Shown here piece after piece: positions 8,104 to 43,066 of a DNA stretch of 44,200 nucleotides; position 1 is the stretch's first letter, and every line of letters begins with the position of its first letter. The position numbers were made by a program, and so were the translations under genes. The stretch covers positions 1-44,200 of the forward strand of contig CAWIIV010000018.1 in assembly GCA_963836205.1 (NCBI GenBank), in the 5' to 3' direction. This DNA comes from an uncultured Acidimicrobiia bacterium. GTDB lineage: Bacteria > Actinomycetota > Acidimicrobiia > Acidimicrobiales > AC-14. The notes below the pieces were generated by a model. The model was not told the origin of the DNA. It worked only from the letters and a program-made list of their open reading frames with translations, and ran no database searches.

Positions 8104-8844
8104 TCAAGGACGCCGAGGGCCTTCCGACAGATAACGGTAGAAGATCTTTTCGGCGTCGTCGAAGGCGACCTCGGCGATGTCCCGTTCGACGTACACCGAG
8201 GCGAAGCCGGTGTCGAGCAGGGTCGGGACGTCCCAGTGGGGGCGGCGCCGGCCGCTGAGAAACAGCTCCAGGGCGATGGCGTCGCCGTCGGGGTGATGGT
8301 CGTCGGGGTCGGGCTGGTAGCCGGCGGCGACGGCGTCGCGCTCGTCGGCCTCGATCCGAGCTCGCAGTTCGGCGTCGTGGAGGGAGAGGTACCAGTTTCC
8401 GTCGAAGATCAGCAGTCGGCCCCCGGGCCGCAGCACCCGGTACCACTCCCGGTAGGCCCGCTCCGGGTCGGGGAGCAGCCAGGTGGCGTTGCGGCACAGG
8501 AGCAGGTCGAAGCTGTCGTCGGCGAAGGTGAGCGCCTGCGAGTCCATGACATGGAACTCGACGTCGGTGAGCCCGGCCGCCTCGGCGTTGGAGCGGGCGG
8601 TGGCGAGCATGTTGGTGGCGCAGTCGACCCCCGTCAGGTGGTGGCCGCTGCCCTTGAACAGCAACGGGAAGAACCCGGGGCCGGTGCCGAGGTCGAGGAC
8701 CCGGAGCCCGCCGCCGGCCGGGCGGTTGGCCTCCACCAGCGCTCGCCACGCCGACCGCCGGGGTCCGGACAGCTCACCCTGGATGTACCGCTGATAACTC
8801 TCGTTGGCGCCTTGCCAGTAGTCGGTGATCCGGTCCTGCAACAC
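8104..8844 (-). CDS. Class I SAM-dependent methyltransferase (MT1)
   Basis: VLDLGTGPG, DDSFDLLL and RVLRPGGRLLIFD. GTG 8844 is preceded by GGAGG and a Nur-like box (ORF is open to 8958). Confidence 0.88.
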   Translation of the reverse strand: MLQDRITDYWQGANESYQRYIQGELSGPRRSAWRALVEANRPAGGGLRVLDLGTGPGFFPLLFKGSGHHLTGVDCATNMLATARSNAEAAGLTDVEFHVMDSQALTFADDSFDLLLCRNATWLLPDPERAYREWYRVLRPGGRLLIFDGNWYLSLHDAELRARIEADERDAVAAGYQPDPDDHHPDGDAIALELFLSGRRRPHWDVPTLLDTGFASVYVERDIAEVAFDDAEKIFYRYLSEGPRRP

Positions 8845-8867
8845 GGCGAACCCCTCCCGATTCTTAT

Positions 8868-8882
8868 TGGGAACTGGTCGCA
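8868..8882. promoter_or_regulatory. Nur-box-like operator upstream of MT1
   Basis: TGGGA-ACTGG-TCGCA, one mismatch to TGCRA-N5-TYGCA. Confidence 0.65.
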
Positions 8883-9086
8883 GATTAACCACGACGCCGT
8901 CAACCATTGAAGTCGTGTTGGAGGCCCTGTCCTTGGGGGTGGCCAAGGCGCTGGTCACCCCACCACCTCGCGTAGTGGTTCGGACTCGCCGTCCCAGGCG
9001 GTCGTCAGCGACGGGCCGGGCGCTGCCGCCAGCAGATGACCGGCCACGGACGCGAATCGTGATCTCCTTCGCCGCCCACGTCTCAG

Positions 9087-9121
9087 TTGACCGGCAACGG
9101 TGTGATAGCTACCCTCTCGCT
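9087..9121 (+). promoter_or_regulatory. Sigma70-type promoter with a degenerate box over the -10
   Basis: TTGACC-17-TACCCT; AGCTA-CCCTC-TCGCT at 9107-9121. Confidence 0.55.
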
Positions 9122-9152
9122 ACCGCATGCTGGCAGTGACAAGGGGGCTGGG

Positions 9153-10232
9153 ATGAACTGTCGGGCCGGGCGGGTGGTCGTCGCCACCCTGCTGGTCGCC
9201 GCGTGCGCCGCGTGCGGAGAGTCGGCGTCGGAGGAGACGACTGCCACCACCGCCGACGCCGCGACACCCGGGTCGTCCGCAGCCGTCGCCGGCTTCCCCG
9301 TGACCGTTGCCGACTGCAAGGGCCTGTCGCAGACCTACCCGGCGCCCCCGAATCGGATCGTGTCGCTGAGCGCAAGTGCCATGGAGACCCTGTACTGGCT
9401 GGGGGTGGGCGACAGGATCGTCGGGACGGCCGAGGGCCCCTACACGGAGACCCAGTTCCCGACGCAGTTCCGGGCCGCGGCCAAGTCGGTCGAGGTCATC
9501 GCCGACCCCTACGTCCCCGGCCAGGACTACCTGGGCGTGACCTTCGAGCGGCTCCTGGCCAAGCAGGCCGACTTCGTGTACAGCGACTTCACCACCACCT
9601 TCGTGAGCTTCAGCCAGGCCGAGCTCAAGGATCGTGGCATCCCGTCCTACCTGTCCTTCAGCACTGACTGCCCAGAGGCCGGCGCCCAGACCAACCTCGA
9701 CCTCGTGTACAAGGAGATCCGTGACGTCGGCCAGATCCTCGGTCGCAGCACGGAGGCGGAGGCCGTCGTCGCCGCCATGCAGAACAAGCTCGCCGACGTG
9801 GCGGCCAATGTCGGATCCCGGCCCAAGCCCCGGGTGCTGTACCTGGGCGGGGACAGCATCACCGCCGAAGCCCCGAGCTCGGCCATCGGCAACCGCCATG
9901 TCGTCAACGCCATCCTCGGGTTGGCCGGAGCCGAGAACGTGTTCGACAACCTCGACACCGGGTACCAGGAGGTGGGCTGGGAGGAGATGGCCGCCCAGAA
10001 CCCGGACGTGATCGTGCTCACCGTGGGGAACTACGTCGAGGGCGACTACCAGCAGGTGATCGACAAGGCTAAGACCGTGCTTCGGGAGCACCCGGCCACC
10101 CGCAACCTGGCCGCCGTCGTCAACGACCGCATCGTCGACATCGACGCCTGGCTGACCGGCGCAGGTGGCGTGCGCAACGCCGACGCCGTCGTCGACCTGG
10201 CCCGGAAGTTCCACCCCGACGCCTTTTCTTGA
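9153..10232 (+). CDS. ABC substrate-binding lipoprotein, FecB/BtuF (TroA-like) class (SBP1)
   Basis: Lipobox CAA-C, Thr linker, FPVTVADC, RIVSL, WEEMAAQNPDVI, LAAVVNDR. Confidence 0.92.
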   Translation: MNCRAGRVVVATLLVAACAACGESASEETTATTADAATPGSSAAVAGFPVTVADCKGLSQTYPAPPNRIVSLSASAMETLYWLGVGDRIVGTAEGPYTETQFPTQFRAAAKSVEVIADPYVPGQDYLGVTFERLLAKQADFVYSDFTTTFVSFSQAELKDRGIPSYLSFSTDCPEAGAQTNLDLVYKEIRDVGQILGRSTEAEAVVAAMQNKLADVAANVGSRPKPRVLYLGGDSITAEAPSSAIGNRHVVNAILGLAGAENVFDNLDTGYQEVGWEEMAAQNPDVIVLTVGNYVEGDYQQVIDKAKTVLREHPATRNLAAVVNDRIVDIDAWLTGAGGVRNADAVVDLARKFHPDAFS

Positions 10233-10280
10233 GCCGCCTTTTCTTGAGCCGCCATCTCTTGAGGCGCCCTTTCTTGAGGC
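10221..10280. repeat. 4 x 15-bp tandem repeat spanning the SBP1 stop codon
   Basis: GCCTTTTCTTGAGCC x2, GCCATCTCTTGAGGC, GCCCTTTCTTGAGGC. Confidence 0.9.
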
Positions 10281-10301
10281 GGTCTGAGCTGGGTGCCGCG
10301 G

Positions 10302-10326
10302 CGCCCCGGCCCGTTGAGCCGGGGCG
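10302..10326 (+). terminator. Intra-operon stem-loop after SBP1
   Basis: CGCCCCGGC-7nt-GCCGGGGCG perfect 9-bp stem; no long U tract. Confidence 0.5.
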
Positions 10327-10347
10327 TTCGGAGTAGCGAGTCCGGAG

Positions 10348-11414
10348 GTGGAGGTGGAGGCGGATGCGGCAGTGGAGGCGCCTCGTCGGCGGGTGCCCCA
10401 GACCCTCGTCGTGGGCATCCTGGTCGTCGCCCTCATGGTGGCGGTGACGGTTGCGGTGGGGGTGGGCCCCGTCCGCATCGGGCCCCTCGAGGTCGGCCGC
10501 ATCGTCGCCCGCCGGCTCTTCGGCGTGGGCGAGGTCCGCTGGACGTTGCTCGAGGAGGACATCGTCTGGAACCTACGGGTGCCGCGGGCGCTGCTGGGCG
10601 TCATCGTGGGCGGGGCCCTGGCCACGGCCGGCGTCCTCATCCAGGCCACGGTGCGCAACCCGCTGGCCGATCCCTACCTGCTGGGCGTCTCCCAGGGGGC
10701 GTCGGTGGGGGCGGTCGCCTTCATCGTGCTCGGCATCGGGGCCTTCGGCGTCTCGTCGGTTACCGCGGCCTCGGCTGTGGGCGCGGCCGGCGCCTTCGGG
10801 CTGGTCTACCTGCTGGCGACCGCGGCGGGGACGGAGAGCTCGCTGCGGGTCGTGCTGGCCGGCGTGGCCGTCGGCTACGCGATGCAGTCCGTCGTCTACT
10901 TCCTGCTCCTCCTGGCCGACAGCCCGGGCGAGACCAACAACGCCCTGTTCTGGATCGTCGGCAGCCTGGCCGCGGCTCGATGGTCGATGCTCCTGATCCC
11001 CGCGGTGGGAATGGTGGCGGTGCTGGTTGCGGCCATCTCCCGGGCGGGCGCGCTCAACGCCCTGCTGCTGGGGGACGAGAACGCCATCGCCTGCGGGGTC
11101 GACGTGACCCGGTTCCGCCGCCAGCTGCTGGTGGCGGCCTCGCTCCTCACCGGAGTGGCGGTGTCCGTGTCGGGGGCGATCGGCTTCGTCGGGCTGGTGG
11201 TGCCCCACGGTGCCCGGCTGGTCGTCGGTGGTGAGCACCGCCGCCTGCTGCCGGTGGCGGCCCTCGCCGGCTCCCTGTTCCTCGTGCTGGCCGATCTGGC
11301 TGCTCGGGTCGCCCTCTCCCAGCGGGAGCTGCCCATCGGGGTGGTCACCGGCCTGGTGGGCGCCCCCATCTTCGCCCTGCTCCTCGTCGGCCGCCGCCGC
11401 CAGGTGGAGGCCGG

Positions 11415-11418
<4 letters not shown>
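10348..11418 (+). CDS. FecCD-family ABC permease
   Basis: LRVPR, RNPLADPYLLGVSQGA, GAIGFVGLVVPH and ELPIGVVT. Confidence 0.95.
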
Positions 11419-12191
<773 letters not shown>

Positions 12192-12201: not shown

Positions 12202-13977
12202 ATGGACCCCGACCAACCCGTCAGCGTCCTGGGCCGGCTCCGCCTGCTCCTGGGAATCGCCGGCCGGGTGCGCCGACAGCTGTGGGTGTCGGTCGCCCTG
12301 GCGGTCGTCGCCACCGCTCTCCAGCTCGCGCCCTACTACCTCCTCTACCGGGCGGTCGACGCCATCGTGGCCGGCACCGCCAGCCGGGGCGGCCTCTTCG
12401 CGCTCGCCCTGGTCTCCGCCGCCTGCATCGCCGGGCGCTTCGTCCTGTGGGCGACGGCCATGTGGATCTCGCACGTGGCCTCGGCCGACATCGAGCGCAG
12501 TCTGCGGGTCGACGTCACCACCCACGTGGCCCGCCTGCCCATGGGGTGGTTCGGCACCCGCCGCAGCGGTGAGCTGAAGAAGCTGCTGGCCGAGGACCTC
12601 GGCCGGCTCGAGCTGTTCGTGGCCCATGCCGTGCCCGAGGTGGTCTCGGCGCTGGTGTGGTGGCTGGCGGTGACGGTATGGCTGTTCGTGGTCGACTGGC
12701 GGCTGGCGGCGGCGGTGCTGGCCACCGTGCCCGTCGCGTTCGCCCTGCTCGTGCTCTCGTGGCGGGGCACGGCGGAGAAGCTGGCCGAGGCGGAGGCGGC
12801 GTCGTCGAGGATGAACGGCTCGATCGTGGAGCTGCTCGTCGGCCTGCCCGTGCTCAAGGTGTTCCGGCGAGCGGAGGACGCGCTGGTCGAGACCCGGCGC
12901 ACGATCGAGCACTTCGCCCACCATCAGACGGAGTGGAGTCGGGAGTACGTCCCCCTGGCGACCGCCTTCTACCAGTTGGTCACCTACAACGTGGTGGCGG
13001 TGGTCGTCGTCGGCCTGCCCCTGGCGGCCACCGGAGCGGTCGGCACCAGTTCGCTGCTGCTTTTCCTGCTCCTCGGCCTCGGCTACGGGCTACCCCTCAT
13101 GCGCTTCTACACCCTCGGCGCCTTCGCCACGTTCATGGCGTCGGCGGCAATGCTCATCCAGCAGGTCCTCGACGAGGAACCCTTGCCCGACACGGGCCGC
13201 CGGGTAGAGCTCGACGGGGCCGCGGTCGAGTTCCGCGACGTCTCGTTCGGCTACGGCGACGGTGGCCGCGTCCTGCACCAGGTGAGCTTCACGGCGACCG
13301 AGGGCGCCGTCACCGCCCTGGTCGGGCCGTCGGGCGCGGGCAAGACCACCGTCGCCCGCCTGGTCGCCCGCTTCGCCGACCCCGACGAGGGCGCGGTCCT
13401 GCTCGGCGGGGTCGACCTACGGGCCGTGGCCGTCGACCAGCTCATGGAGAACGTCGCCGTGGTCGCCCAGGACCCCTTCCTGTTCCACGACTCGATCGAG
13501 GCCAACATCCGGGTGGGGCGGGCGGGCGCCACCGGCGAGGAGGTGCGGGCCGCGGCCCGGGCGGCCCGGGCCCACGATTTCGTGGAGGCGCTTCCCGACG
13601 GCTACGCCACCGTCGTCGGCGAGCGGGGGTCGACCCTGTCCGGCGGGCAGCGCCAGCGCATCACCATCGCCCGGGCCCTGCTCAAGGACGCCCCCGTCGT
13701 CGTGCTCGACGAGGCCACCGCCTTCGCCGACCCCGAGAGCGAGGCCGAGATCCAGGCCGCCATCGGTGCCTTGGTGGTGGGTCGGACGCTGATCGTCGTC
13801 GCCCACCGGCTCCAGACGGTGGTGGCGGCTGACCGCATCGTCGCGCTCGACGGCGGCCGGGTGGTGGCGAGCGGCACCCACGCCGAGAACCTGGCGGGCG
13901 GGGGTCGCTACTTGCGGATGTGGGAGGACGCCACCCGGGCCACTCCGCCACCGACGGTGACGGCGGTCGGACGATGA
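12202..13977 (+). CDS. Fused TMD-NBD ABC half-transporter, YbtP/IrtA-like
   Basis: SHVASA...LR, SGELKK...D...LE.FVAH.VPE, GPSGAGKT, LSGGQRQR, LDEATAFADPESE. Confidence 0.85.
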   Translation: MDPDQPVSVLGRLRLLLGIAGRVRRQLWVSVALAVVATALQLAPYYLLYRAVDAIVAGTASRGGLFALALVSAACIAGRFVLWATAMWISHVASADIERSLRVDVTTHVARLPMGWFGTRRSGELKKLLAEDLGRLELFVAHAVPEVVSALVWWLAVTVWLFVVDWRLAAAVLATVPVAFALLVLSWRGTAEKLAEAEAASSRMNGSIVELLVGLPVLKVFRRAEDALVETRRTIEHFAHHQTEWSREYVPLATAFYQLVTYNVVAVVVVGLPLAATGAVGTSSLLLFLLLGLGYGLPLMRFYTLGAFATFMASAAMLIQQVLDEEPLPDTGRRVELDGAAVEFRDVSFGYGDGGRVLHQVSFTATEGAVTALVGPSGAGKTTVARLVARFADPDEGAVLLGGVDLRAVAVDQLMENVAVVAQDPFLFHDSIEANIRVGRAGATGEEVRAAARAARAHDFVEALPDGYATVVGERGSTLSGGQRQRITIARALLKDAPVVVLDEATAFADPESEAEIQAAIGALVVGRTLIVVAHRLQTVVAADRIVALDGGRVVASGTHAENLAGGGRYLRMWEDATRATPPPTVTAVGR

Positions 13978-15788
13978 CCGCCACGCTCCCGTCAACGTCG
14001 GACACGCCCCGGGCTCGGGGCCAGTTGGCCTCGGTGGTCGACGTGTCCCGCCAGGTGTGGGCACTCGCCGGCCGCCACCGGGCGCCCCTGCGGCGGTGTC
14101 TCGTCATCCGGGTGCCCCTGGCCCTGCTCTCGGCGGTGCAGGTCCTCCTCGTCGTGGTCGCCATCGAGCGGGTCCGCACCGCCAGCCTGACCTCGACCGC
14201 GGCGTGGTGGATCGCAGGCGGGGTGACCGCCACGGCCGCGGTGCAGCTGGGACTGGCTGTCGCCGGCAACCGGATGGCGTGGCTGCACTGCTACCTCTTC
14301 GGCGGCGAGCTGCGAGTGCGCCTGCTCGACCGGGCTCGAGCCCTCCCCGTCGCCTACCACTCCCGACACCAGGCCGGCGAGACGACCATGGTCCTCACCG
14401 GCGACGTCACCCGGGTGGAGAACTTCGTCGGATGGAGCCTCCCGGTCCTCGTCGGCGACATCGCCCTACCGCTCTCGGTGTTGGCCGTGCTGGCGGTGCT
14501 CGACCTCCGCATGGCCGCCGCCACCGCCCTCTCGGTCGTGCTGGCCCTCCCCGCCCTGGCGTGGACCCAGCGCCGCCTGGCCGCCTTCACCGAGGCTCAT
14601 CGCGACCTCCACGGCCAGACCGTGGCCCGGGTGGTCGAGTACGTGCAGGGGATCGCAGTGGTCAGGGCGTTCAACCTCGCGGGCGAGCGCCAGGCCAGCT
14701 TCAAGGCGGCCACGGACGCCCTCCACGCCAACATGGTTCGGCTCCTGAGGACGGTGTCGCCCACCTACGCGGTGTTCACCACCGTGCTCCAGCTCGGGAT
14801 CGCGGTCACCCTGGCCGCGGTCGCCTACCTGCTCTTCGGCGGCCAGCTCGACGCCGGCACTGCGGTCGTGTTCCTGGTGCTGGCCGTCCGGGTCTACGAG
14901 CCGCTGTTCGACATCGCGGGACAGGTCGAGCCGGTGCCGCAGGTGGCCGCGTCCCTGGCCCGCATCCACGCCCTCCTCGATGCGCCGTGCGAACCGGTGC
15001 CAACCGTCACCCGGCCGATCGAGGCCTACGACCTGACCCTCGAAGCTGTCGACTTCTCCTACGGGGCCGCCCCCGTGCTGGTCGACGTCGGCTTCGCCGT
15101 GCCCGCCCGCACCATGACCGCCATCGTGGGCCCGTCGGGGGCGGGGAAGTCCACCATCCTCGGGCTCCTGGCCCGTCTCTACCGGCCGGGGGAAGGATCG
15201 GTCCGGATCGGCGGGGTCGACCTGCGGGAGGTGTCCGAGGGCGACCTGTACGACGCGGTGGGCGTCGTGTTCCAGGACGCCTACCTCTTCGGGGGCAACG
15301 TCCGCGACAACATCGCCGCCGGCCGGCCAGACGCATCCGACGACGAGCTGGTGGCGGCGGCCAGGGCCGCCGGCTGCCACGACGACATCGCCGCCCTGGT
15401 CGCGGGCTACGACACCTCGGTCGGGGAGGCCGGCCAGACACTGTCCGGCGGCGAGCGGCAACGGGTCACCCTGGCTCGGGCCCTGCTCAAGCGGGCACCG
15501 GTCCTGCTCCTCGACGAGGTGACCGCGGCTGTCGACCCGTCCACGGAGCGGGTCGTCACCGAGGCCCTCGACCGCCTCCGGGCCACCACCACGATCGTGG
15601 TCGTCTCCCACCGGCTGGCGACCGTCCGCTCCGCCGACCAGATCGTGGTCCTCGACGGCGGCCGGGTCGTGGGTCGGGGCACCCACGACGAGCTGGTGGT
15701 GGCGGGCGGCCTCTACGCCCGCTGGGTTGCCGATCGGGAACGGGTGGCCGGCTGGCGACTGACGTCGACGAGCCGGTGTGGGGACTGA
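13974..15788 (+). CDS. Fused TMD-NBD ABC half-transporter, YbtQ/IrtB-like
   Basis: ATGA overlap with partner; VEYVQGIAVVRAFNL, GPSGAGKS, LSGGERQR. Confidence 0.85.
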   Translation: MTATLPSTSDTPRARGQLASVVDVSRQVWALAGRHRAPLRRCLVIRVPLALLSAVQVLLVVVAIERVRTASLTSTAAWWIAGGVTATAAVQLGLAVAGNRMAWLHCYLFGGELRVRLLDRARALPVAYHSRHQAGETTMVLTGDVTRVENFVGWSLPVLVGDIALPLSVLAVLAVLDLRMAAATALSVVLALPALAWTQRRLAAFTEAHRDLHGQTVARVVEYVQGIAVVRAFNLAGERQASFKAATDALHANMVRLLRTVSPTYAVFTTVLQLGIAVTLAAVAYLLFGGQLDAGTAVVFLVLAVRVYEPLFDIAGQVEPVPQVAASLARIHALLDAPCEPVPTVTRPIEAYDLTLEAVDFSYGAAPVLVDVGFAVPARTMTAIVGPSGAGKSTILGLLARLYRPGEGSVRIGGVDLREVSEGDLYDAVGVVFQDAYLFGGNVRDNIAAGRPDASDDELVAAARAAGCHDDIAALVAGYDTSVGEAGQTLSGGERQRVTLARALLKRAPVLLLDEVTAAVDPSTERVVTEALDRLRATTTIVVVSHRLATVRSADQIVVLDGGRVVGRGTHDELVVAGGLYARWVADRERVAGWRLTSTSRCGD

Positions 15789-15796
15789 ATCCCGAC

Positions 15797-15847
15797 CGCA
15801 ACCGGATTGCAGCTCGCAATTGCATATCAGTGTAGTTGCCCTAGGGT
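15797..15847 (+). promoter_or_regulatory. Nur-box-like operator and promoter of a decayed SBP gene
   Basis: CGCAA-CCGGA-TTGCA (15797-15811); TTGCAT-16-TAGGGT (15820-15847). Confidence 0.6.
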
Positions 15848-16084: not shown

Positions 16085-16230
16085 CCGACGAGCTAATTGC
16101 AACTGCCCGGAGCACGCCGTTAGCGTTGCCCTCCTGAGGGCCGAGTAAGGCCGTTCGTCACTCCAGGAAGTCGGTTCGCTCGTTGGGAGCACAGATCACA
16201 CCCGCACGGCAGTCGGACGCGCGGTCTACC

Positions 16231-16689
16231 CGGGAGAACATCCGTCTGGGCCGGCCCGACGCCACCGACGAGGAGGTCGCGCTGGCCGCCGAGCGGGCCC
16301 TGGTCGGCGAGTTCCTCGACGAGCTGCCCGACGGCCTCGACACCGCGGTGGGCGAGCGGGGCGCCACCCTCTCGGGCGGGCAGCGCCAACGGATCGCCAT
16401 CGCCCGGGCCCTGCTGCGCGACGCCCAGGTGCTGGTGATGGACGAGGCCGTGTCCAACCTCGACACCCAGAGCGAGCAGCTGCTGCAGGTGGCCATGGCC
16501 GAGATCCGGCAGGGCCGCACGACCCTGCTCATCGCCCACCGCCTGTCGACCATCCGCAGCGCCGACCGGCTGGTGGTGCTGGAGGGGGGTCGGGTAGCCG
16601 AGACCGGCACCTACGCCGAGCTGATCGATGCCGGCGGCACGTTCGCCCACCTGGTCGCGGCCCAGCAGCTCGGCCTCCTCGACCGGTAG
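16231..16689 (+). pseudogene. C-terminal fragment of an ABC exporter-type NBD
   Basis: [33 protein letters not shown]; no Walker A and no TMD. Confidence 0.8.
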
Positions 16690-20272: not shown

Positions 20273-20294
20273 CCCAAACCCATCAAGGAGACAG

Positions 20295-21317: not shown

Positions 21318-21323
21318 GCGATC

Positions 21324-29869: not shown

Positions 29870-29870
29870 G

Positions 29871-32684: not shown

Positions 32685-32707
32685 GCTGGTAGCAGGAACT
32701 CTAACGT
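32679..32707 (+). promoter_or_regulatory. Promoter with a Nur-like box over the -35
   Basis: TTGCAT-17-TAACGT; TGCAT-GCTGG-TAGCA at 32680-32694. Confidence 0.7.
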
Positions 32708-32755
32708 TCGGCCCTGATCGTCCCGGGGGGCGACAGAACGCGAGGGGATGACTCA

Positions 32756-33811: not shown

Positions 33812-33813
33812 CC

Positions 33814-34953: not shown

Positions 34954-35759
34954 AACTGGAGGCGGCGGGGGTCACCGTGGTGCTCGACGGGCACACGATC
35001 GTGTCGTCGGCCACCCTCGAGGTGGGCGAGGGCGAGGTCGTCGGGCTGGTGGGACCCAACGGGAGCGGGAAGTCGACGCTGCTGCGCTGCGTCTACCGAG
35101 TACTGCGGCCCCACGCCGGCCTGGTGAGCATCGACGGTGACGACGTGTGGGGGCTGGCCCCGCGCGCCGCCGCCCGGCGGACCGCGGTCGTCGTCCAGGA
35201 GCCACCCAGCGACTTCGACTTCGCCGTCCGGGACATGGTGATGATGGGCCGGTCGCCCCACCTCGGGATGCTGGAGCGGGGCACGGAGACCGACGACCGC
35301 ATCGTGGACGAAGCCCTCGACCGGGTGGGGGCGTCCGCCTTCGCCGACCGGGGCTTCCTCACCCTCTCCGGTGGCGAGAAGCAGCGGGTGCTGCTGGCCC
35401 GCGCCCTGGCCCAGCAGTCACGACTGCTGGTGCTGGACGAGCCCACCAACCACCTCGACATCCTTCACCAGCTGGAGGTCCTCGAACTGGTGCGGGGCCT
35501 GGGCGTCGCCACCCTGGCCGCCCTCCACGACCTCAACCTGGCGGCCTGCTACTGCGACCGGGTCTACGTCCTGGCCGGAGGGGGGGTTGTGGCATCGGGT
35601 CCGCCGGAGGAGGTGCTGACGCCCGAGCTCGTCCGGGCCGTCTTCGGTGTGGGTGCAGTCCGGTCCGTCCACCCGGTGACGGGCAAGGCCCAACTCGCCT
35701 TCTACTCCCCGTCGCGGGCTACGGCGACGGGAACAGACGCTGCATCCAGAGGGAGCTGA
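34950..35759 (+). CDS. FecE/BtuD-type ABC ATPase
   Basis: GTGA overlap; GPNGSGKS, LSGGEKQR, LDEPTNHLD. Confidence 0.95.
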   Translation: MKLEAAGVTVVLDGHTIVSSATLEVGEGEVVGLVGPNGSGKSTLLRCVYRVLRPHAGLVSIDGDDVWGLAPRAAARRTAVVVQEPPSDFDFAVRDMVMMGRSPHLGMLERGTETDDRIVDEALDRVGASAFADRGFLTLSGGEKQRVLLARALAQQSRLLVLDEPTNHLDILHQLEVLELVRGLGVATLAALHDLNLAACYCDRVYVLAGGGVVASGPPEEVLTPELVRAVFGVGAVRSVHPVTGKAQLAFYSPSRATATGTDAASRGS

Positions 35760-36222
35760 TGTACTCGCCGTGCTTGGTCGCGTACTCCTCGAAGATCCCC
35801 ACCTCGGTGAAGCCGAACTTGCGGTGGAGGGCGACCGAAGCGTCGTTGGGGAGAGCGATGCCGGCCAAGGCGGTGTGGACCGGCTCACCCGCCAGGCGGT
35901 CGAACAGGGCCCGGTACAGGCGGGTGCCGATGCCCCGGCCCCGCCAGTCGTGGTGGAGTGAGATGCCGACCTCGACCGTCTCGACGAACGCCTCGAGTTC
36001 GCGGTAGCGGCCGCTGGACGCGTGACCGATCGTCAGCCCGTCGTGGCGGGCGACGAGGAGGCGGTGGGGGCCGGACGTCGAGAACCCTCCGAACCAGGCG
36101 AGCCGGTCCTCGACGGAGACGGGACGGTTGTGGAAGCTCGCGTTCGACGTGGCCACGGAGTGGTTGGCGATGGCGACGAGCGCGGGGAGGTCGTCGATCG
36201 TCCCCTCGTCGATGGTGATCAG
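35719..36222 (-). CDS. GNAT acetyltransferase (YncA/Pat-like), probable CTG start
   Basis: DDLPALVAIANH, RLAWF, RGRGIGTRLY, AGIALPNDASVALHRKFGF; GGAGGAGG before CTG at 36222. Confidence 0.85.
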   Translation of the reverse strand: MITIDEGTIDDLPALVAIANHSVATSNASFHNRPVSVEDRLAWFGGFSTSGPHRLLVARHDGLTIGHASSGRYRELEAFVETVEVGISLHHDWRGRGIGTRLYRALFDRLAGEPVHTALAGIALPNDASVALHRKFGFTEVGIFEEYATKHGEYISSLWMQRLFPSP

Positions 36223-36352: not shown

Positions 36353-36376
36353 GTTATAGCGATCGATCGCTATAAC
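36353..36376. promoter_or_regulatory. Perfect 24-bp palindrome upstream of the first nur paralog
   Basis: GTTATAGCGATCGATCGCTATAAC; followed by TAGGAT-6-ATG (leaderless-like). Confidence 0.75.
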
Positions 36377-36393: not shown

Positions 36394-36837
36394 ATGCCTA
36401 CTCTTGCTTCCACCGACCCGCGTCTGGCCGAGATCCTCGACATGCTGCGGGAGCGCGGCGGTCGCATCACCACGCCCCGCAGGGCGATCATCAGTGCCCT
36501 GCTGAAGTCCGGCGGCCACATCACGGCCGACGAGCTGACCAGCCAGATCCAGGCCGACTACCCCGACGTCCACCTGTCCACGATCTACCGCTGCCTGGAG
36601 ACCCTCGAGGAGCTGGCGGTCGTCGACCACATCCACCTTGGGCACGGTCGGGCCATCTACCACCTCGCCGACGAGGCCCACCAACACCTGATGTGCGAGG
36701 TCTGCGGCGCCGTCATCGAGGTCCCCGACGCTCTGTTCGCCAGCCTGGGCAAGCGGCTGCAGGCCGACTACGGCTTCGCCATCCGGCCCCGGCACTTCGC
36801 CCTCCTCGGCCGCTGCGCCGACTGCCAGGCATCCTGA
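36394..36837 (+). CDS. nur: Fur-family regulator, Nur-like (paralog 1)
   Basis: STIYR, HIHLGHG..YHLAD, HQHLMCEVC, RHFALLGRC..C; matches the Streptomyces Nur HAHLGHG/HFA signature. Confidence 0.8.
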   Translation: MPTLASTDPRLAEILDMLRERGGRITTPRRAIISALLKSGGHITADELTSQIQADYPDVHLSTIYRCLETLEELAVVDHIHLGHGRAIYHLADEAHQHLMCEVCGAVIEVPDALFASLGKRLQADYGFAIRPRHFALLGRCADCQAS

Positions 36838-36916: not shown

Positions 36917-37363
36917 GTGCGACGGGTCACGGTAGAGGTCAGCGAGCGCCTGGAGGACGTCCTCGGGTTGTTGCGGACCAACGGCGGACGGGCGACCACT
37001 CCCCGGCGGGCCATCATCGACGCCCTGCTCCACTCCGACGGCCACGTGACCGCCGATTCGCTCACGGCCGAGATCCAGGTCGACTTCCCCGACGTGCACC
37101 TGTCCACCATCTACCGGTGCCTGTCGACGTTGCAGCAGCTGGGCGTGGTCGAGCAGATCCACATCGGCCATGGCCGCGCCGTCTACCACCTCACCGACGA
37201 GCCCCATCAGCACCTCCTGTGCGAGGGCTGCGCCCGCGTCATCGAGGTGCCGGACGAGGTGTTCGCCGACCTCATCGACGAGGTCGGGACGGACTACCGG
37301 TTCGCCCTCCGGCTCCGGTGCTTCGCCCTCATCGGGCGCTGCGCGGGTTGCTCCGGCGACTGA
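36917..37363 (+). CDS. Fur-family regulator, Nur-like (paralog 2, altered Ni site)
   Basis: Close paralog (TTPRRAII, PDVHLSTIYRCL) but QIHIGHG and RCFALIGRC. Confidence 0.85.
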   Translation: MRRVTVEVSERLEDVLGLLRTNGGRATTPRRAIIDALLHSDGHVTADSLTAEIQVDFPDVHLSTIYRCLSTLQQLGVVEQIHIGHGRAVYHLTDEPHQHLLCEGCARVIEVPDEVFADLIDEVGTDYRFALRLRCFALIGRCAGCSGD

Positions 37364-37870: not shown

Positions 37871-37889
37871 AGGGAGAACCTAGCTATTC

Positions 37890-38004
37890 TGCGACCAGCT
37901 CGCAACAGATTTCTTGCGACGGACTTGCGCTTAGCGAATCTCGCGGCGTCGTTGGACGTGCGGTCGCCACCCGGCATCTGGTTGACTACTGCGACCAGGT
38001 CTGA
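37890..38004. promoter_or_regulatory. Cluster of Nur-like boxes upstream of SBP4
   Basis: TGCGA-CCAGC-TCGCA (37890, perfect), TGCGA-CGGAC-TTGCG (37915), TGCGA-CCAGG-TCTGA (37990, partial). Confidence 0.75.
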
Positions 38005-38029
38005 TCAAAAGGGTGAGGTCCGGACAGCG

Positions 38030-39088
38030 ATGAGACGAGATGTGCGTGCGGGGATCGCTGGGCTCTTCCTGCTGAGCCTGGTGTTGGCCGCCTGCGGCGA
38101 TGATGGCGAGGACGCGGGCACCACGGCGACGACGGCCGCGGTTCTGGGAGGGGCGGGCCGCACCGCGTACCCGCTCACCATCACCAACTGCGGTTCGACG
38201 GAGACGTTCGCCCAAGCCCCCCGGACGGTGCTGACCGAGGGCGCGCCGCCGATGACCGCGCTGCTCGTCCAGCTCGGGCTGAAGGACCGCATCGTGAAGA
38301 CGACCGTCTTCTCCACCCGCAGTGACATCCCCGGCATGACCGCCGAGCTCGAGTCGCTCCCCCGGGTCGTGGTAGAGAACCTGGGCCTGTCCCGGGAAGA
38401 GGCGATCGCTCTCAGCCCCGACCTCATTGTCGGCGGGCAGGAGAGCTACTTCCAGGCGAAGCGGGGTTTCGCCCTGCGGTCCGAGCTCCACGCGGCGGGT
38501 ATCCAGGCCTACGCCCCCGCCTACTTCTGCGCCAACAACGTCGACAACCCGACGCCCGAGGCGGTGGCGGCCCGCAAGAACGCAGGGATCGAGGAGCACC
38601 TCCAGACCATCATCGAGCTGGGCCGCATCTTCGACGTCAACGACCGGGCCGCCAACCTCGTGGCCGAGATCCGCCAGACGATCGCCGACACCGAGGCCAA
38701 GGTCGGGAGCCTCCCGCCCAAGCGGGTGACGTTCACCGACCCGTCCATCGCCGACGAGACCAAGAGCGGGGGGGCGTTCTACGTGTACGGCGGCAAGGTG
38801 GTCGACGAGCTGCTGGCCGCCACCGGCGGCACCAACGTGTGGTCCGACCAGGAGGGCTTCGCCACGATAACCAAGGAGGCGGCCACCGTGCGCCCGGCGG
38901 ACGTCGTGATCTTTGGCCTCTACGAGGGCTCGCCGAACCCCCAGCAGGTGACGGCCTATGTCCAGGCCACCTATCCCTCCTGGCCCGCGGCCGCCAGCGG
39001 CTCGGTCGTGCAGGTCGACAGCACGGTGAACCTGCAGATCACCCATCCGGTCAACTTCCTCCTCCTGGCCCAGGCCCTCCACCCGTAG
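38030..39088 (+). CDS. ABC substrate-binding lipoprotein (SBP4)
   Basis: Lipobox LAA-C; YPLTITNCG; IALSPDLIV; YFC. Confidence 0.92.
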   Translation: MRRDVRAGIAGLFLLSLVLAACGDDGEDAGTTATTAAVLGGAGRTAYPLTITNCGSTETFAQAPRTVLTEGAPPMTALLVQLGLKDRIVKTTVFSTRSDIPGMTAELESLPRVVVENLGLSREEAIALSPDLIVGGQESYFQAKRGFALRSELHAAGIQAYAPAYFCANNVDNPTPEAVAARKNAGIEEHLQTIIELGRIFDVNDRAANLVAEIRQTIADTEAKVGSLPPKRVTFTDPSIADETKSGGAFYVYGGKVVDELLAATGGTNVWSDQEGFATITKEAATVRPADVVIFGLYEGSPNPQQVTAYVQATYPSWPAAASGSVVQVDSTVNLQITHPVNFLLLAQALHP

Positions 39089-39187
39089 GCGTTCTCGTAA
39101 GCTCTCAGCTCCTAGGTGGAGTCAGGTGCTAGCACGTAACCGTTGCGAGATGGCCGGAACAGACGGTTCGGGAGGTAGGCAGCCAGG

Positions 39188-40276
39188 ATGGGGATGCGGT
39201 CGCGGCGGGTGCGGGCTGGTGTGGCGGGAGCGTGCGCCCTGGGTCTGGTGCTCGGCGCTTGCGGCGAGGACGGCGGTGACGGCGAGGCGACGGCCACGAC
39301 GACGGCGGGGGCTGCGACGACCGGTTTCACCGGCCCTACGACCTACCTGCTCACCATCGACAACTGCGAGTCGAAGGAGACCTTTACCCGGGCGCCGCGG
39401 ACGGTGCTCACCGAGGGGGCTCCGCAGAACACGGCCCTGTTGATCGAGCTCGGGCTGAAGGACCGGATCGTGAAGACGACGATCTACTCCACCCGCAGTG
39501 ACATCCCGGGCATGCCCGCCCAGCTCAAGACGCTGAACCGGGTCACGGTCGAGGGCAACGGCCTGCCCCGTGAGGAGATGATCGCCCTCGAGCCCGACCT
39601 GGTCGTGGCCGGGTTCGACTCCTACTTCCAGTCCACGGAGGGCTTCGCCACCCGGGACGAGCTCCACGCCGCCGGTATCAACGCCTATGCCCCCGCCTAT
39701 TTCTGCGCCGAGTTCAAGGAGAACCCGTCGGCCGCCGAGGTGGTGGCGCGCAAGAACGCGGGGATCGATGCGCACCTGCAGACGATCATCGAGCTGGGCC
39801 AGATCTTCGACGTGAACGACCGGGCCGCGGCCCTCGTGGCCGAGATCCGCCAGACCATCGCCGACACCCGGGCCAAGGTGGCCGGCCTCCCCCTCAAGCG
39901 GATGACAATCACCGATCCGTCGATCGCCGACGAGACGATGAGCGGGGGCGTGATCTACGTCTACGGCGGCAAGATCCTCGACGAGCTCCTGGCCGTCGCC
40001 GGTGGGACCAACGTCTGGGCCGACGGGGACGACTTCCAGTCGGTGTCGAAGGAGGACGCCACCGCCCGGCCCGCCGATGTCGTCGTCTACGGCGAGTACG
40101 ACGGGGCGCCGCCGCCGGAACAGGTACTGGCCTTCGTGAAGGCGACCTTCCCTTCGTGGCCGGCGGCGCAGACGGGTTCGGTCGTGCAGATCGACGACAC
40201 CGTCACCCTCCAGGTCACCCACCCGGGGCTGACCACGCTGATGGCCAAGGCCCTGCACCCGGAGGCGTTCTCGTAA
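39188..40276 (+). CDS. ABC substrate-binding lipoprotein (SBP5), tandem paralog of SBP4
   Basis: Lipobox LGA-C; LTIDNC; shared blocks LGLKDRIVKTT.STRSDIPGM and YAPAYFCA. Confidence 0.92.
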   Translation: MGMRSRRVRAGVAGACALGLVLGACGEDGGDGEATATTTAGAATTGFTGPTTYLLTIDNCESKETFTRAPRTVLTEGAPQNTALLIELGLKDRIVKTTIYSTRSDIPGMPAQLKTLNRVTVEGNGLPREEMIALEPDLVVAGFDSYFQSTEGFATRDELHAAGINAYAPAYFCAEFKENPSAAEVVARKNAGIDAHLQTIIELGQIFDVNDRAAALVAEIRQTIADTRAKVAGLPLKRMTITDPSIADETMSGGVIYVYGGKILDELLAVAGGTNVWADGDDFQSVSKEDATARPADVVVYGEYDGAPPPEQVLAFVKATFPSWPAAQTGSVVQIDDTVTLQVTHPGLTTLMAKALHPEAFS

Positions 40277-40302
40277 CCGGCACGGCCCTGCGCCCGAAGC
40301 CG

Positions 40303-41370
40303 GTGGACGACCTCTCTGGGTCCCCACCCAGTCCCCACCGGATCCACGGGATCTGGTACGTGGCGACCCTGTGCGGCCTGGGGGCGAGCGCGGTCCTGGC
40401 CGTCATGCTCGCCATCGGCATCGGGACGGTTCACTTCTCCCTGGGCACGGTCGCCGGGGTCGTCGTCGACCGCCTGCTCGGACGCCCGCCCCGGCCCGGG
40501 GTGGCCGACCAGATCGTGTGGCAGTTCCGCACCCCCCGGGCGTTGCTGGCGGCCCTGGCCGGGGCGGGTCTGGCCGTCAGCGGCACCATGCTCCAGGCGG
40601 TGGTGCGCAACCCGCTGGCCGATCCCTACGTGCTCGGGCTGAGCCAGGGAGCGGGGCTCGGGGCCACCGCCGTCATCGTCCTCGGGCCGGCGGCGCTGGG
40701 CGGGCTGGGAGTGAGCGCGGCGGCCTTCCTCGGCGCCATGGCCAGCCTGCTGGCGGTCGTGGTCCTCGGCCAGCGGGCGGGCGCCTTCGTGCCCACCCGG
40801 CTGGTGTTGGCGGGCGTGGCCGTGGGCTACCTCCTGTCCGCCGCCACCAGCTACCTGCAGTACCAGGCCGACCCCGAGCAACTGCGGTCGGTGGTGTTCT
40901 GGCTGCTGGGCAGCGTCGCCGGGGCCCACTGGCACGACCTGTGGCTGCCTGCCGTCTGCGTGGTGGTGGTCACCGTGTGGGCGATGGCCCAGGGGCGCAA
41001 GCTCAACGCCCTCCTGCTGGGCGAGGAAGCGGCCATCGCCGTCGGCGTGAACATCCACCGGCTCCGCCTGGAGATCCTCGTCGCCAGCGCCCTGCTCACG
41101 GGGGCGATCGTCGCCGTCGCCGGCGGCGTCGGCTTCGTCGGCCTGATCGTCCCCCACGTCGTGCGGATGTTCGTCGGCCCCGACCACCGCAAGGTCCTGC
41201 CGGTGGCGGCCCTGCTGGCGGCCACCTTCCTGGTGATCGTCGACCTGATGGCCCGCACCGTCGCCCCGCCCGGCGACCTCCCCCTGAGCGTGCTCACCGC
41301 CGCCGTGGGAGCACCGTTCTTCATCTGGCTGCTGCGCCGGCCGGAACGGCTGGCGAGGACGGCGACATGA
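40303..41370 (+). CDS. FecCD-family ABC permease (start uncertain)
   Basis: FRTPR, RNPLADPYVLGLSQGA, GGVGFVGLIVPH. Confidence 0.93.
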   Translation: MDDLSGSPPSPHRIHGIWYVATLCGLGASAVLAVMLAIGIGTVHFSLGTVAGVVVDRLLGRPPRPGVADQIVWQFRTPRALLAALAGAGLAVSGTMLQAVVRNPLADPYVLGLSQGAGLGATAVIVLGPAALGGLGVSAAAFLGAMASLLAVVVLGQRAGAFVPTRLVLAGVAVGYLLSAATSYLQYQADPEQLRSVVFWLLGSVAGAHWHDLWLPAVCVVVVTVWAMAQGRKLNALLLGEEAAIAVGVNIHRLRLEILVASALLTGAIVAVAGGVGFVGLIVPHVVRMFVGPDHRKVLPVAALLAATFLVIVDLMARTVAPPGDLPLSVLTAAVGAPFFIWLLRRPERLARTAT

Positions 41371-42197
41371 CGCTGCGGGTGCGGGGGGTCGAGGTCGAGC
41401 TGGGCGGGATCAAGGTCGTGGCCGGGATCGACCTCGACGTCGCCGCCGGGCAGTTGGCGGCCGTGGTCGGTCCCAACGGCAGCGGGAAGACGACCCTGCT
41501 GCGGTCGGTGTACCGGTCGCTGCGGCCCCTGGCCGGCTCCGTCCGCCTCTCCGGGCCGGAGGGCGACGTCGACGTGTGGGCCCTCCCCCACCGTGAGGTC
41601 GCCCGCCGGATGGCGGTGCTCAACCAGGAGCGGGCCGACGATTTCGAGCTGTCGGTGACCGAGGTGGTGCTCACCGGGCGGACCCCCCACAAGCACCTGC
41701 TCGAGCGCGACTCGTCGGCCGACCACCGCCTGGTGGCCCGGCTTCTCGACCAGGTGGGGGTGGGGTGGGCCCGAGGCCGGTTCTTCTCGTCGCTGTCGGG
41801 CGGTGAGAAGCAGCGGGTGCTGCTGGCCAAGGCGCTAGCCCAGCAGACAGGCCTGCTCCTGCTCGACGAACCCACCAACCACCTCGACGTGGCCGCCCAG
41901 TGCGCCCTCCTCGACCTGCTGCGCGCTCTGGTCGAGGACGAGGGGCTGACCGTCGTGGCCGTCCTCCACGACCTCAACCTGGCCGCCGCCTACGCCGACC
42001 ACATGGTCGTCCTCGACCACGGGCGGGTGGCGGCCGCCGGTCCGCCGGCGACGGTGCTCACCGAGGAGATGGTCATGGCCGTCTTCGGCGTCCGGGCTCA
42101 CTGCGGCATCCACCCCGAGACCGGGACCCTCCACGTCGCCGTTCACATGGGCCGGACCGCGCCCCGGCCCGTCGGCCTGCCCCGGGGAGGTCAGTGA
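41367..42197 (+). CDS. FecE/BtuD-type ABC ATPase
   Basis: ATGA overlap; GPNGSGKT, LSGGEKQR, LDEPTNHLD. Confidence 0.95.
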   Translation: MTLRVRGVEVELGGIKVVAGIDLDVAAGQLAAVVGPNGSGKTTLLRSVYRSLRPLAGSVRLSGPEGDVDVWALPHREVARRMAVLNQERADDFELSVTEVVLTGRTPHKHLLERDSSADHRLVARLLDQVGVGWARGRFFSSLSGGEKQRVLLAKALAQQTGLLLLDEPTNHLDVAAQCALLDLLRALVEDEGLTVVAVLHDLNLAAAYADHMVVLDHGRVAAAGPPATVLTEEMVMAVFGVRAHCGIHPETGTLHVAVHMGRTAPRPVGLPRGGQ

Positions 42198-43066
42198 TGG
42201 CGGTCGACTTCCACGCCGAGGAGATGCGGGCCACGTGGGACTACTGGTCCGAGGCCTACGATCGGGGCGAGGGGATCGGCTTCGCCACGCCGGGGATGGA
42301 GGCGGCCTGGCTGTCCGACATGGCCCGGCTGTTCGGCCACCCGGCGGCGGACCCGACCGCGGGACGGCTGCGCATCCTCGACCTGGCGTGCGGGACGGGC
42401 CAGCTCACCCTCACCCTGGCCCGGCTCGGCCACCACGTTCAGGCCCTCGACCTGTCCCTCGCGATGCTGCGGGCGGCGGAGGCCAAGGCGGGCGCCCTCG
42501 GCCTGCCGGTCAGCTTCCATCGGGGCGAGGCCCACGCCCTGCCGTTCGCCGACGGCTCGTTCGACGTCGTGGTCAGCAAGATGCTGCTGTGGACCCTTTA
42601 CGACCCGGAGTCGGCAGTCGTCGAGTGGCGCCGGGTGACCGCCCCCGGCGGTCGGGTCATGGGCATCGACGCCCTGTGGTTCGGTCGCCAGACGGTCGCC
42701 GAGCACGTGGCCTGGCCGGCCTACCGGTGCTGGGTCGCCCTGGCCCAGGCCCGGGACCGCCTGCGCCTTCGCCTGCGACGGGGCGCCTTTCCGGGCCCGC
42801 CTCCCCCGCCTCGCCCCTCGTCGGAGCAGCCGCCCGGCCGCCGCTGGACCAGCACCGATCCCATCGTCGGGATCTTCACCGCCTCAGGCGACGAGCGCCC
42901 GAGTCTCGACTGGCTGACCTCCGTCAACCAGCGCATCCGATTCGAGGAAGGCCCGGTTCGGCGCCAGGTCCGCCGGACCAAGCCGTTCTTCGTGGTGACT
43001 GCCGTGCGGCCCGGATCAGCCGAGCCAGGTGGCCGGGACGACGTCCGGTCTCGCCTCGTCGGCTGA
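42197..43066 (+). CDS. Class I SAM-dependent methyltransferase (MT3), translationally coupled to the ATPase
   Basis: TGATG overlap; ILDLACGTG, LPFADGSFDVVV, LLWTLYDP, RVTAPGGR. Confidence 0.9.
   Translation: MAVDFHAEEMRATWDYWSEAYDRGEGIGFATPGMEAAWLSDMARLFGHPAADPTAGRLRILDLACGTGQLTLTLARLGHHVQALDLSLAMLRAAEAKAGALGLPVSFHRGEAHALPFADGSFDVVVSKMLLWTLYDPESAVVEWRRVTAPGGRVMGIDALWFGRQTVAEHVAWPAYRCWVALAQARDRLRLRLRRGAFPGPPPPPRPSSEQPPGRRWTSTDPIVGIFTASGDERPSLDWLTSVNQRIRFEEGPVRRQVRRTKPFFVVTAVRPGSAEPGGRDDVRSRLVG

Follow-up and report, generated by a model that had tools for sequence, protein, structure and literature searches.

Four FecCD-type importers and their methyltransferase neighbours in an uncultured Acidimicrobiia bacterium: a possible nickel-chelate uptake island

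Why should importers of the FecCD/Peripla_BP_2 type, which usually carry iron-siderophores, haem or B12, be encoded side by side with S-adenosylmethionine (SAM)-dependent methyltransferases, and which metal do they serve? The question is raised by a stretch of 44,200 nucleotides from an uncultured Acidimicrobiia bacterium (contig CAWIIV010000018.1 of assembly GCA_963836205.1), which is the entire 44.2-kb contig (C18) and is referred to below as the window; the metagenome-assembled genome (MAG) to which it belongs measures 4.05 Mb, has ~71% G+C and is 88.6% complete. Genes were called from open reading frames (ORFs) and third-position G+C, and domains were assigned by Pfam and NCBIfam scans. 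As a preliminary description made from the letters alone had stated, the window holds four FecCD operons (op1 to op4), three of which adjoin a class I methyltransferase, with MT1 and MT2 divergent from their operons and MT3 translationally coupled (ORF calls, Pfam); the remaining operon, op3, is flanked by a major facilitator superfamily (MFS) gene and a GNAT acetyltransferase gene (Pfam; Table 1). The release of nickel from its carrier after import by an ATP-binding cassette (ABC) transporter is poorly understood, and the carriers are unidentified for most bacteria. We tentatively favour the reading that the window is a Nur-controlled uptake island for nickel chelates whose methyltransferases process the imported ligand, and regard it as a close call.

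Linkage of methyltransferases to importers

The four importers (Pfam) have diverged considerably from one another. Each operon encodes a Peripla_BP_2 protein, a FecCD permease and an ATPase, the combination by which type II importers were recognized, and identity between the paralogues is 45-51% for the permeases, 42-53% for the ATPases and 24-29% for the substrate-binding proteins (SBPs). They are thus old paralogues with strongly diverged binding proteins, which speaks for a different cargo in each of the four. A lipobox is present in every one of the five binding proteins (op4 encodes two). Just after the lipoprotein linker, all five also share a motif, (F/Y)P(L/V)T(I/V)xNC, with an invariant Cys, which from its sequence may mark an uncharacterised Peripla_BP_2 subgroup. 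When SBP1-4a were compared with PDB sequences (E<=1e-6), the matches were the uncharacterised structural-genomics entries 5CR9, 4MLZ, 4N01 and 4LJS plus a haem or iron binder, and the literature on 5CR9 and 4MLZ yielded no useful lead.

The preliminary description had counted three distinct methyltransferases, which is true of MT2, a member of a separate family, and does not hold for MT1 and MT3, which belong together. In a word-indexed search MT3 had only two full-length relatives (93% and 69% identity), and 57 other genomes of the taxonomic family yielded no full-length copy. Comparison of profiles after an exhaustive HMMER search nevertheless identifies MT3 as a distant member of the MT1 family and not an orphan: against the MT1-family profile, hhalign gave 99.8% (E 3.7e-30) over 234 columns, extending to residue 276 and including the C-terminal strand. 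Members of this MT1/MT3 family have ~250 residues, an N-terminal YW helix, the motifs LDxGTGPGFF, RNxTW, AYxEWxRVLxPGG, FDxNWY and RRPxWD, and a C-terminal PxFMIxAEK strand; no name or curated model for the family was found in NCBIfam, Pfam (beyond generic domains), PDB or ESM Atlas, and for MT1 a PDB sequence search and the ESM Atlas returned generic methyltransferases or unnamed clusters without a functional lead. The coupling of MT3 to op4 is tight, the stop codon of ATPase4 (TGA, 42195-42197) overlapping the MT3 start (ATG 42197, or GTG 42194), with GGGGAGG upstream. MT2 is a distant relative of this family rather than a member (hhalign against family alignment A1, 97.5%, E 6e-12), and its own family is common in Actinomycetota, cyanobacteria and Chloroflexota. 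Identification of MT2 as trans-aconitate methyltransferase (Tam), an annotation carried by only some of its homologues, was rejected (PRK14103, 36.2 bits vs a cut-off of 320).

To what extent does the linkage recur? For the MT1/MT3 family, the best 80 of 466 relatives from species genomes gave 79 loci, whose neighbouring genes were clustered and the cluster representatives annotated. Some importer adjoins the methyltransferase gene in 55 of the 79 loci, mostly within co-directional Opp/Nik-type operons: an ABC ATPase is a neighbour in 54/79 loci, a BPD_transp_1 permease in 50/79, an SBP_bac_5 binding protein in 44/79, a FecCD permease in 7/79 (8 by tblastn) and a Peripla_BP_2 binding protein in 4/79. 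The usual layout is MT-SBP-perm-perm-ATP-ATP, or a similar one with the methyltransferase last, and all genes are co-directional. ABC exporter pairs and MatE genes were each present in 9/79 loci, and no other biosynthetic enzyme appeared as a conserved neighbour among the clusters; clusters c8-c10, which have no Pfam match, were discarded as probable antisense ORF artefacts of the crude gene calling. Besides related gut and anaerobic Bacillota, the loci cover Pasteurellaceae, Citrobacter, Paenibacillus, Coriobacteriia, a deltaproteobacterium and Methanomassiliicoccales. Within an even sample of 400 Actinomycetota genomes the family profile matched 36, and an importer was directly adjacent in 9 of the 29 loci examined (4 Nik-type, 5 FecCD-type). 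Conserved linkage, which the preliminary description had expected, was therefore borne out for this family; for the MT2 family it is confined to a minority of loci (below).

Particularly close counterparts were found in four Actinomycetota genomes, where a FecCD gene (56-61% identical to FecCD2), an SBP2-like gene and an ATPase gene (57-68%) are followed by an MT1/MT3-family methyltransferase, which is the op2 gene order with a methyltransferase at the 3' end. Directly 3' of ATPase2 in the window, at the place where these orthologous operons carry the methyltransferase gene, there is a perfect G+C-rich hairpin (22108-22133), likely a terminator. The same-genus genome G002 and the metagenome contig L129 have methyltransferase and FecCD modules most similar to op3, and L129 additionally holds two Fur-like genes, a HypB/CobW-like gene, an MFS gene and an MT2-like gene. 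Members of the MT2 family are operonic with FecCD genes in 8/80 metagenome loci, several of them within 200 bp and co-directional, and in 1/9 genome loci. This one is G077, a 2.1-Mb actinobacterial genome (locus L107, G077:C1 ~9500-16740), in which a FecCD operon with 5-6 tandem SBP2-like genes is followed by an ATPase gene and an MT2-like gene. The op2-type importer is thus partnered by the MT2 family in the window and in G077 and by the MT1/MT3 family in other genomes, and the presence of two unrelated methyltransferase families on the same transporter type is difficult to account for unless function requires it. No description of a coupling between methyltransferases and nickel transporters or metallophores was found in the open-access full-text literature covered.

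These comparisons bear on the plainest alternative, that the window is an ordinary iron-siderophore importer cluster in which the methyltransferases are chance neighbours. The usual cargo of FecCD/Peripla_BP_2 systems would fit it, as would the patchwork nature of the island, with its exporter remnants and indels, and the near absence of close relatives of MT3. Speaking against it are the recurrence of the linkage across phyla, in several gene orders and in gene fusions, and the gene numbers in the host: its genome has ~37 distinct Methyltransf_25-type genes (40 matches) and 7 distinct FecCD genes (10 matches), 4 of these in the window, and by a rough estimate 3/4 operons would be flanked by a methyltransferase with a probability of ~3e-5, so that chance is unlikely. 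The three FecCD genes outside the window have no methyltransferase match within ~20 kb. Already disfavoured on these grounds, the chance-neighbour alternative appears very improbable.

Nickel genes and Nur-like regulators

Nickel control had been proposed in the preliminary description, and it agrees with the HypB gene, one regulator's histidine triad, the CbiMNQO-type transporter, the NikA-type partners and the Nur boxes at orthologous operons that are described below; the part of the proposal that rested on boxes in the window itself fared poorly. The gene that converges on MT3, previously called CobW, encodes HypB, the hydrogenase nickel-incorporation GTPase, with a score above the curated cut-off (TIGR00073, 244.8 bits vs 121.2) and a His-rich N-terminus. 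The host genome encodes [NiFe]-hydrogenase, nickel superoxide dismutase (Ni-SOD) and urease. An energy-coupling factor (ECF)-type Ni/Co transporter is present in the window, with Pfam scores of 197.8 bits for CbiM, 76.1 for PDGLE and 106.2 for CbiQ, which also matched TIGR02454 (146.9 bits vs a cut-off of 111.8), and with a CbiO-type ATPase.

The two Fur-family regulators, FURa and its paralogue FURb (65% identical), both have the Streptomyces coelicolor Nur structure 3EYY as their best PDB match (103 bits for FURa). His70, His72 and His126 of the Nur nickel site are essential, according to the part of the Nur study cited here (PMC2691836). In FURa each of the three aligned residues is His, and all 10 FURa orthologues examined retain the triad. 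FURa and FURb both retain Tyr56, Arg57 and Asp37, the residues that contact DNA.

The clearest candidate operators were detected outside the host. With a 6-5-6 Nur box model (tTGCaa-N5-ttGCAA, scanned at <=3 mismatches), three op2-like operons with a methyltransferase had promoter boxes with 0, 1 and 2 mismatches, and a fourth for which upstream sequence was available had the variant TTGCGA-N5-TCGCGA. Similarly, three FURa orthologues have a Nur box directly upstream (0, 1 and 1 mismatches), and two more have the variant TGCGA-N5-TCGCAA, as is found upstream of op4. Across 427 kb of loci scanned, six matches had <=1 mismatch, and five of them lay at op2-like+MT promoters or Nur-like genes; the sixth (L258, 1 mismatch) was discounted because it lies inside an ORF. 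The 4.05-Mb host genome has no Nur box at <=1 mismatch. In the window, a palindrome at 19105-19121 occupies the position where orthologous op2-like operons carry Nur boxes.

The partners of the methyltransferases in other genomes point the same way. Ten binding proteins from methyltransferase-linked Opp-type operons, chosen from diverse taxa, all (10/10) had nickel NikA models as best match: TIGR02294 (nikA) was above its cut-off in 4 (up to 626 bits), with CntA second, and a staphylococcal NikA-type model was best in 3. A CsoR/RcnR-family repressor gene neighbours the MT1/MT3-family gene in 4 loci. Overall, the evidence for nickel inside the window is weak and suggestive and the comparative evidence is stronger. 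The preliminary description was largely right in what it observed, and its interpretation is partly supported: it was right on linkage and nickel, and its details were wrong or conjectural.

The nearest known regulatory system is that of S. coelicolor Nur, whose regulon includes sodF, nikABCDE and nikMNOQ, with nikMNOQ among the targets in the cited part of PMC2691836. The window resembles it in the nickel site of FURa, in a CbiM/N/Q/O-type transporter with a Nur-like box upstream, and in the 6-5-6 boxes that precede orthologous genes in other Actinomycetota. It differs in that the candidate targets are FecCD importers and methyltransferases, which are not named in that part of PMC2691836, in that two paralogous regulators stand in tandem, and in that the boxes of the window are degenerate (3 mismatches) and the site upstream of FURa has another geometry.

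A proposed role in ligand processing and its rivals

We hypothesize that the window is an island for the acquisition of nickel, possibly of nickel and cobalt, in an actinobacterium making [NiFe]-hydrogenase, Ni-SOD and urease. The four FecCD importers would take up nickel on different small organic chelators via lipoproteins of the putative Peripla_BP_2 subgroup, the free ion would enter through the CbiM/N/Q/O-type transporter, a HypB paralogue would handle intracellular nickel, and the two Nur-like regulators would repress the set under nickel sufficiency. Mechanistically, the class I methyltransferases would be cytoplasmic accessories of the importers that methylate donor groups of the chelator (carboxylate or amine/imidazole) after import; this would lower the denticity, free the metal and block re-chelation, and the spent ligand would then either be broken down or leave the cell through the neighbouring exporter-type ABC pair or the MFS protein. 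The GNAT beside op3 may serve likewise by acetylation. Both the cargo, nickel chelates, and the action of methylation on the imported ligand are what we infer from gene content and comparison.

Such a role has a conceptual parallel in iron uptake, where siderophore-processing esterases and reductases free the metal after import and are encoded with the importer. The idea of an importer-encoded cytoplasmic enzyme acting on the imported chelate is the same, but the chemistry proposed here is SAM-dependent methylation and the metal nickel rather than iron. No description of SAM-dependent methylation for metal release was found in the open-access literature covered. If the proposal is true, methylation-driven release would be a new mechanism of post-import metal release, the Nur regulon would extend to FecCD-type importers, and annotations as 'iron-siderophore ABC transporter' in Actinomycetota could conceal systems supplying nickel to hydrogenase, urease and Ni-SOD. 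A methyltransferase family in nickel-type importer operons of gut anaerobes, soil actinobacteria and some Proteobacteria also offers a concrete, testable handle on the problem. MT1/MT3-type importer-linked enzymes occur in Bacillota, Actinomycetota, Proteobacteria and methanogen-related archaea. The bolder claim, that unnamed import-coupled ligand methyltransferases are widespread at nickel-chelate importers of both NikABCDE and FecCD types, releasing metal by nickelophore methylation and being Nur-controlled in Actinomycetota, is one that we consider doubtful, though not far-fetched.

Ligand processing is favoured over biosynthesis because the methyltransferase is usually co-transcribed with the importer, because it is fused to an importer ATPase in one lineage and in others is fused to a deacylase or lies next to one, and because exporters are only minority neighbours. 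The fusion partners are a NikE-like ATPase in P0173, which places the enzyme at the cytoplasmic face of the importer, and an AstE/AspA-type deacylase domain in P0130. The biosynthetic alternative holds that the methyltransferases tailor a self-made nickelophore from a common metabolite, which the ABC pair or MFS protein secretes and the importer retrieves, in a minimal analogue of the Cnt/staphylopine system. Consistent with it, a triad of importer, exporter pair and methyltransferase recurs in op1, G002, L030 (Acetobacterium) and L016, the MFS gene that diverges from op3 is EntS-like, the second-best match of the NikA-type binding proteins is CntA, which binds staphylopine, and tandem or doubled methyltransferases are found in 17 loci; the MT1 family also includes tandem double-methyltransferase proteins of ~495 aa (P0063-P0066, P0070). 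The scarcity of exporters, the lack of any other conserved biosynthetic enzyme nearby and the importer-ATPase fusion, which suggests action on incoming cargo, argue the other way, as does the finding that the methyltransferases have no CntL/CntM-type match in NCBIfam. We judge biosynthesis to be somewhat unlikely.

Comparison with the Cnt systems, which unite a SAM-using enzyme with an importer and an exporter in one operon (described in part in bioRxiv 10.1101/641969), shows likeness and difference. The MT1/MT3 family is embedded elsewhere in operons of the same transporter type as NikABCDE and Cnt, whereas the importers of the window are FecCD-type and not Opp-type, its enzymes are of the canonical Methyltransf_11 type and not nicotianamine-synthase-like as CntL is, and neither CntL nor CntM (opine dehydrogenase) was found among the window ORFs scanned or the conserved neighbour clusters. 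As the preliminary description had also noted, no siderophore, metallophore or corrinoid synthesis domain was detected among these ORFs (Pfam/NCBIfam).

A further alternative is that the methyltransferases and the GNAT are resistance enzymes directed at Trojan-horse antimetabolites, sideromycin-like molecules or toxic chelators that use the importers, comparable to acetylation of the phosphinothricin type. The best NCBIfam matches of the GNAT, all sub-threshold, are N-acetyltransferases acting on amino-acid analogues (ArsN1/PAT type; arsinothricin/phosphinothricin), exporters are occasional neighbours, and thiol and heterocycle-toxin methyltransferases are among the many enzymes whose folds the MT1 model matches. 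These fold matches are generic, with the AlphaFold2 model (pLDDT 89) retrieving only small-molecule methyltransferases at TM-scores <=0.62 in Foldseek, and resistance would leave the Nur-box regulation, the consistent NikA-type partners and the transporter-ATPase fusion unexplained. It appears decidedly improbable.

Several results weigh against the nickel-chelate island proposed here. MT1 lacks the C-terminal strand conserved in its own family (it matches profile positions 3-239 of 249), its orthologue in the same-genus genome G004, where op1 has been lost, is frameshifted at the C-terminal region, and the window copy may be decaying. The NCBIfam matches of the binding proteins and methyltransferases in the window are all generic and far below the cut-offs. 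The 79 loci are dominated by related gut or anaerobic Bacillota and hence are not independent. For the MT2 family, no importer was present in 72/80 metagenome loci (many with short flanks) and in 8/9 genome loci, and its neighbourhoods are heterogeneous, the top cluster being an ABC ATPase in 14/89 loci, with no dominant partner.

On the regulatory side, the Nur-like boxes that the preliminary description had placed in the intergenic regions shared by MT1 and MT2 with their operons were not confirmed, as neither the region between MT1 and SBP1 nor that between MT2 and FecCD2 contains a sequence fitting the Nur consensus with <=3 mismatches. The window has 5 Nur-like matches, all with 3 mismatches, vs 1.8 expected, a number reached by 3/100 shuffles; the host genome holds 120 matches at this level, 6 of 292 windows across this genome contain at least 5, and since 68/120 matches fall outside ORFs under a crude coding mask, the intergenic placement of the window boxes is not striking. 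The palindrome upstream of FURa is even-spaced and not 6-5-6, and it may be a FURb operator or an altered autoregulatory site. FURb carries Gln in place of His70 and Cys in place of His126, so that two of its three nickel-site residues are altered and one is kept, and to judge from these residues it may sense another metal or a second effector. Nur-like genes elsewhere adjoin FecCD genes in 1/10 loci and CbiMNQO in 1/10, which makes the adjacency of regulator and transporter local to the host lineage. Finally, a cobalamin riboswitch lies directly upstream of a methyltransferase + Opp-type operon in 1/11 related loci scanned (L019), which indicates cobalt or corrinoid rather than nickel there.

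The riboswitch and the altered FURb site also favour the alternative that the metal is not nickel, in which the FecCD operons would carry cobalt/corrinoids, zinc or iron chelates and the nickel genes would be mere neighbours in a general metal island. To the same side belong the NCBIfam names of CbiM and CbiQ as 'cobalt' components, the naming of the entries best matched by the window SBPs as Fe3+-hydroxamate or iron-complex binding proteins, and a PepSY_TM gene in the window, a type of gene often iron-associated. Set against these are the zero Rfam matches in the window, so that no B12, NiCo or other riboswitch is present, the Nur boxes with 0 and 1 mismatches before op2-like+MT operons elsewhere, and the NikA-type partner binding proteins; no IdeR/DmdR-type operator was noticed on reading the intergenic regions, no formal scan for one having been made. 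We regard a metal other than nickel as unlikely. Nothing in the window speaks for the tetrapyrrole substrate suggested in the preliminary description; a cobalamin riboswitch is absent there, though one related locus has one.

A likeness to the nickel importer NiuBDE of Helicobacter had been drawn as well, and it was not borne out in detail. Solved NiuB/CeuE structures exist in the PDB, and the comparison of window SBPs with PDB sequences (E<=1e-6) matched none of the nickel-binding proteins of Helicobacter; nor did the window ORFs scanned include NikR, the regulator that controls NiuBDE. The Helicobacter system is not known to include a methyltransferase. What is shared is the type II (FecCD/Peripla_BP_2) architecture, H. 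pylori NiuBDE being a FecCD-type nickel importer according to the part of PMC5140060 cited here.

Gene content and assembly of the island

The coordinates of all features are collected in Table 1, and some gene starts are probably later than the ORFs suggest. The true start of MT1 probably lies ~40 codons after 8958, near 8832-8850, since homologue coverage begins only at residues 34-46; that of the MFS gene probably lies downstream of 32801, and that of SBP4a near 38030. The CbiM domain and orthologue match begin ~43-51 codons into the ORF. For the exporter pair beside op1, NCBIfam gave only sub-threshold MsbA/CydDC-like matches.

Table 1. Features of the 44.2-kb window, with coordinates, strand and the evidence or context of each
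Feature	Coordinates	Strand	Evidence and context
MT1, class I SAM methyltransferase	8104..8958	-	Methyltransf_11, 86.3 bits; divergent from op1
op1 importer: lipoprotein SBP1, FecCD1, ATPase1	9087..12191	+	Pfam, lipobox
SBP1	9087-10232		
FecCD1	10348-11418		
ATPase1	11415-12191		
Two exporter-fold ABC half-transporters	12202..15788	+	Pfam (ABC_membrane + ABC_tran); contiguous with op1
Nur-like box	15796..15812		3 mismatches; downstream of exporter pair
Remnant of ABC exporter ATPase domain, C-terminal part only	16225..16644	+	tblastn to EXP_A residues 431-570; partial ABC_tran
MT2, class I SAM methyltransferase of second family	18292..19074	-	Methyltransf_25, 43 bits; divergent from op2 by 62 bp
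Palindrome TACGAAC-T-GTTCGCA	19105..19121		Between TTGACT and TAGCTT hexamers; ~5 mismatches to Nur consensus
op2 importer: FecCD2, lipoprotein SBP2, ATPase2	19136..22112	+	Pfam; orthologous operons elsewhere
FecCD2	19136-20272		
SBP2	20295-21317		
ATPase2	21324-22112		
Second ABC-exporter ATPase remnant	28134..28645	+	tblastn; frameshift near 28472
ECF-type Ni/Co transporter: CbiM, PDGLE (CbiN-like), CbiQ, CbiO	28711..31390	+	Pfam, NCBIfam
Nur-like box	28786..28802		3 mismatches; just upstream of probable true CbiM start
MFS exporter-like gene	31623..32801	-	MFS_3/EntS-like, sub-threshold; divergent from op3
Nur-like box	32679..32695		3 mismatches; between MFS gene and SBP3; identical in G004
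op3 importer: lipoprotein SBP3, FecCD3, ATPase3	32756..35759	+	Pfam, lipobox
SBP3	32756-33811		
FecCD3	33814-34953		
ATPase3	34950-35759		
GNAT acetyltransferase	35719..36156	-	Pfam; beside op3
24-bp perfect palindrome GTTATAGCGATCGATCGCTATAAC	36353..36376		18 bp upstream of FURa; outer arms conserved in G004
FURa, Nur-like Fur-family regulator	36394..36837	+	Pfam FUR, 89.5 bits
FURb, paralogue of FURa	36917..37363	+	Pfam FUR, 83.4 bits
Two tandem Nur-like 6-5-6 boxes	37889..37930		Starts 37889 and 37914; 3 mismatches each; upstream of op4
op4 importer: lipoproteins SBP4a and SBP4b, FecCD4, ATPase4	37925..42197	+	SBP4a (from 37925) and SBP4b (from 39188) 67% identical
MT3, divergent MT1-family member	42197..43066	+	Translationally coupled to ATPase4
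HypB, hydrogenase nickel-incorporation GTPase	43016..44020	-	TIGR00073; converges on MT3

The arrangement of the island was compared with that in G004, where a 977-kb contig carries it with the gene order of the window; the order is therefore no assembly artefact. Both op1 and op4 are deleted in G004, only the promoter region of op4 and the final 40 MT3 codons being left, and importer modules are thus gained and lost as units. The two exporter remnants in the window (Table 1) suggest past recombination or deletion between repeated ABC modules. A block at 22165-28127, encoding an anti-sigma factor (zf-HC2), PepSY_TM, DsbB, redoxin and Lgt, is absent from G004, where ATPase2 directly precedes CbiM. 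ORF 27234-28127 was taken as non-coding in view of its low-complexity Arg/Ala/Gly/Pro translation.

Within the assembly, positions 31520-44200 of the window are 99-100% identical to positions 1-12680 of contig C20 (the last 12.7 kb of the contig), and the locus continues on C20 past the end of the window. The C20 copy has the MFS gene in three fragments, and contigs C3, C4 and C5 carry identical hydrogenase matches. Because of such redundant or strain-variant contigs in the MAG, copy numbers taken from the assembly are unreliable. An NhaA Na+/H+ antiporter gene (6604-7940) is divided between two ORFs that overlap in different frames, one matching positions 2-174 of the Pfam model and the other 200-374, which reflects either a frameshift or an assembly indel. 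Lastly, a gene for a 539-residue polytopic membrane protein without a Pfam match (16723-18342) converges on MT2 with a 50-bp overlap, and the protein is 89% conserved in G004.

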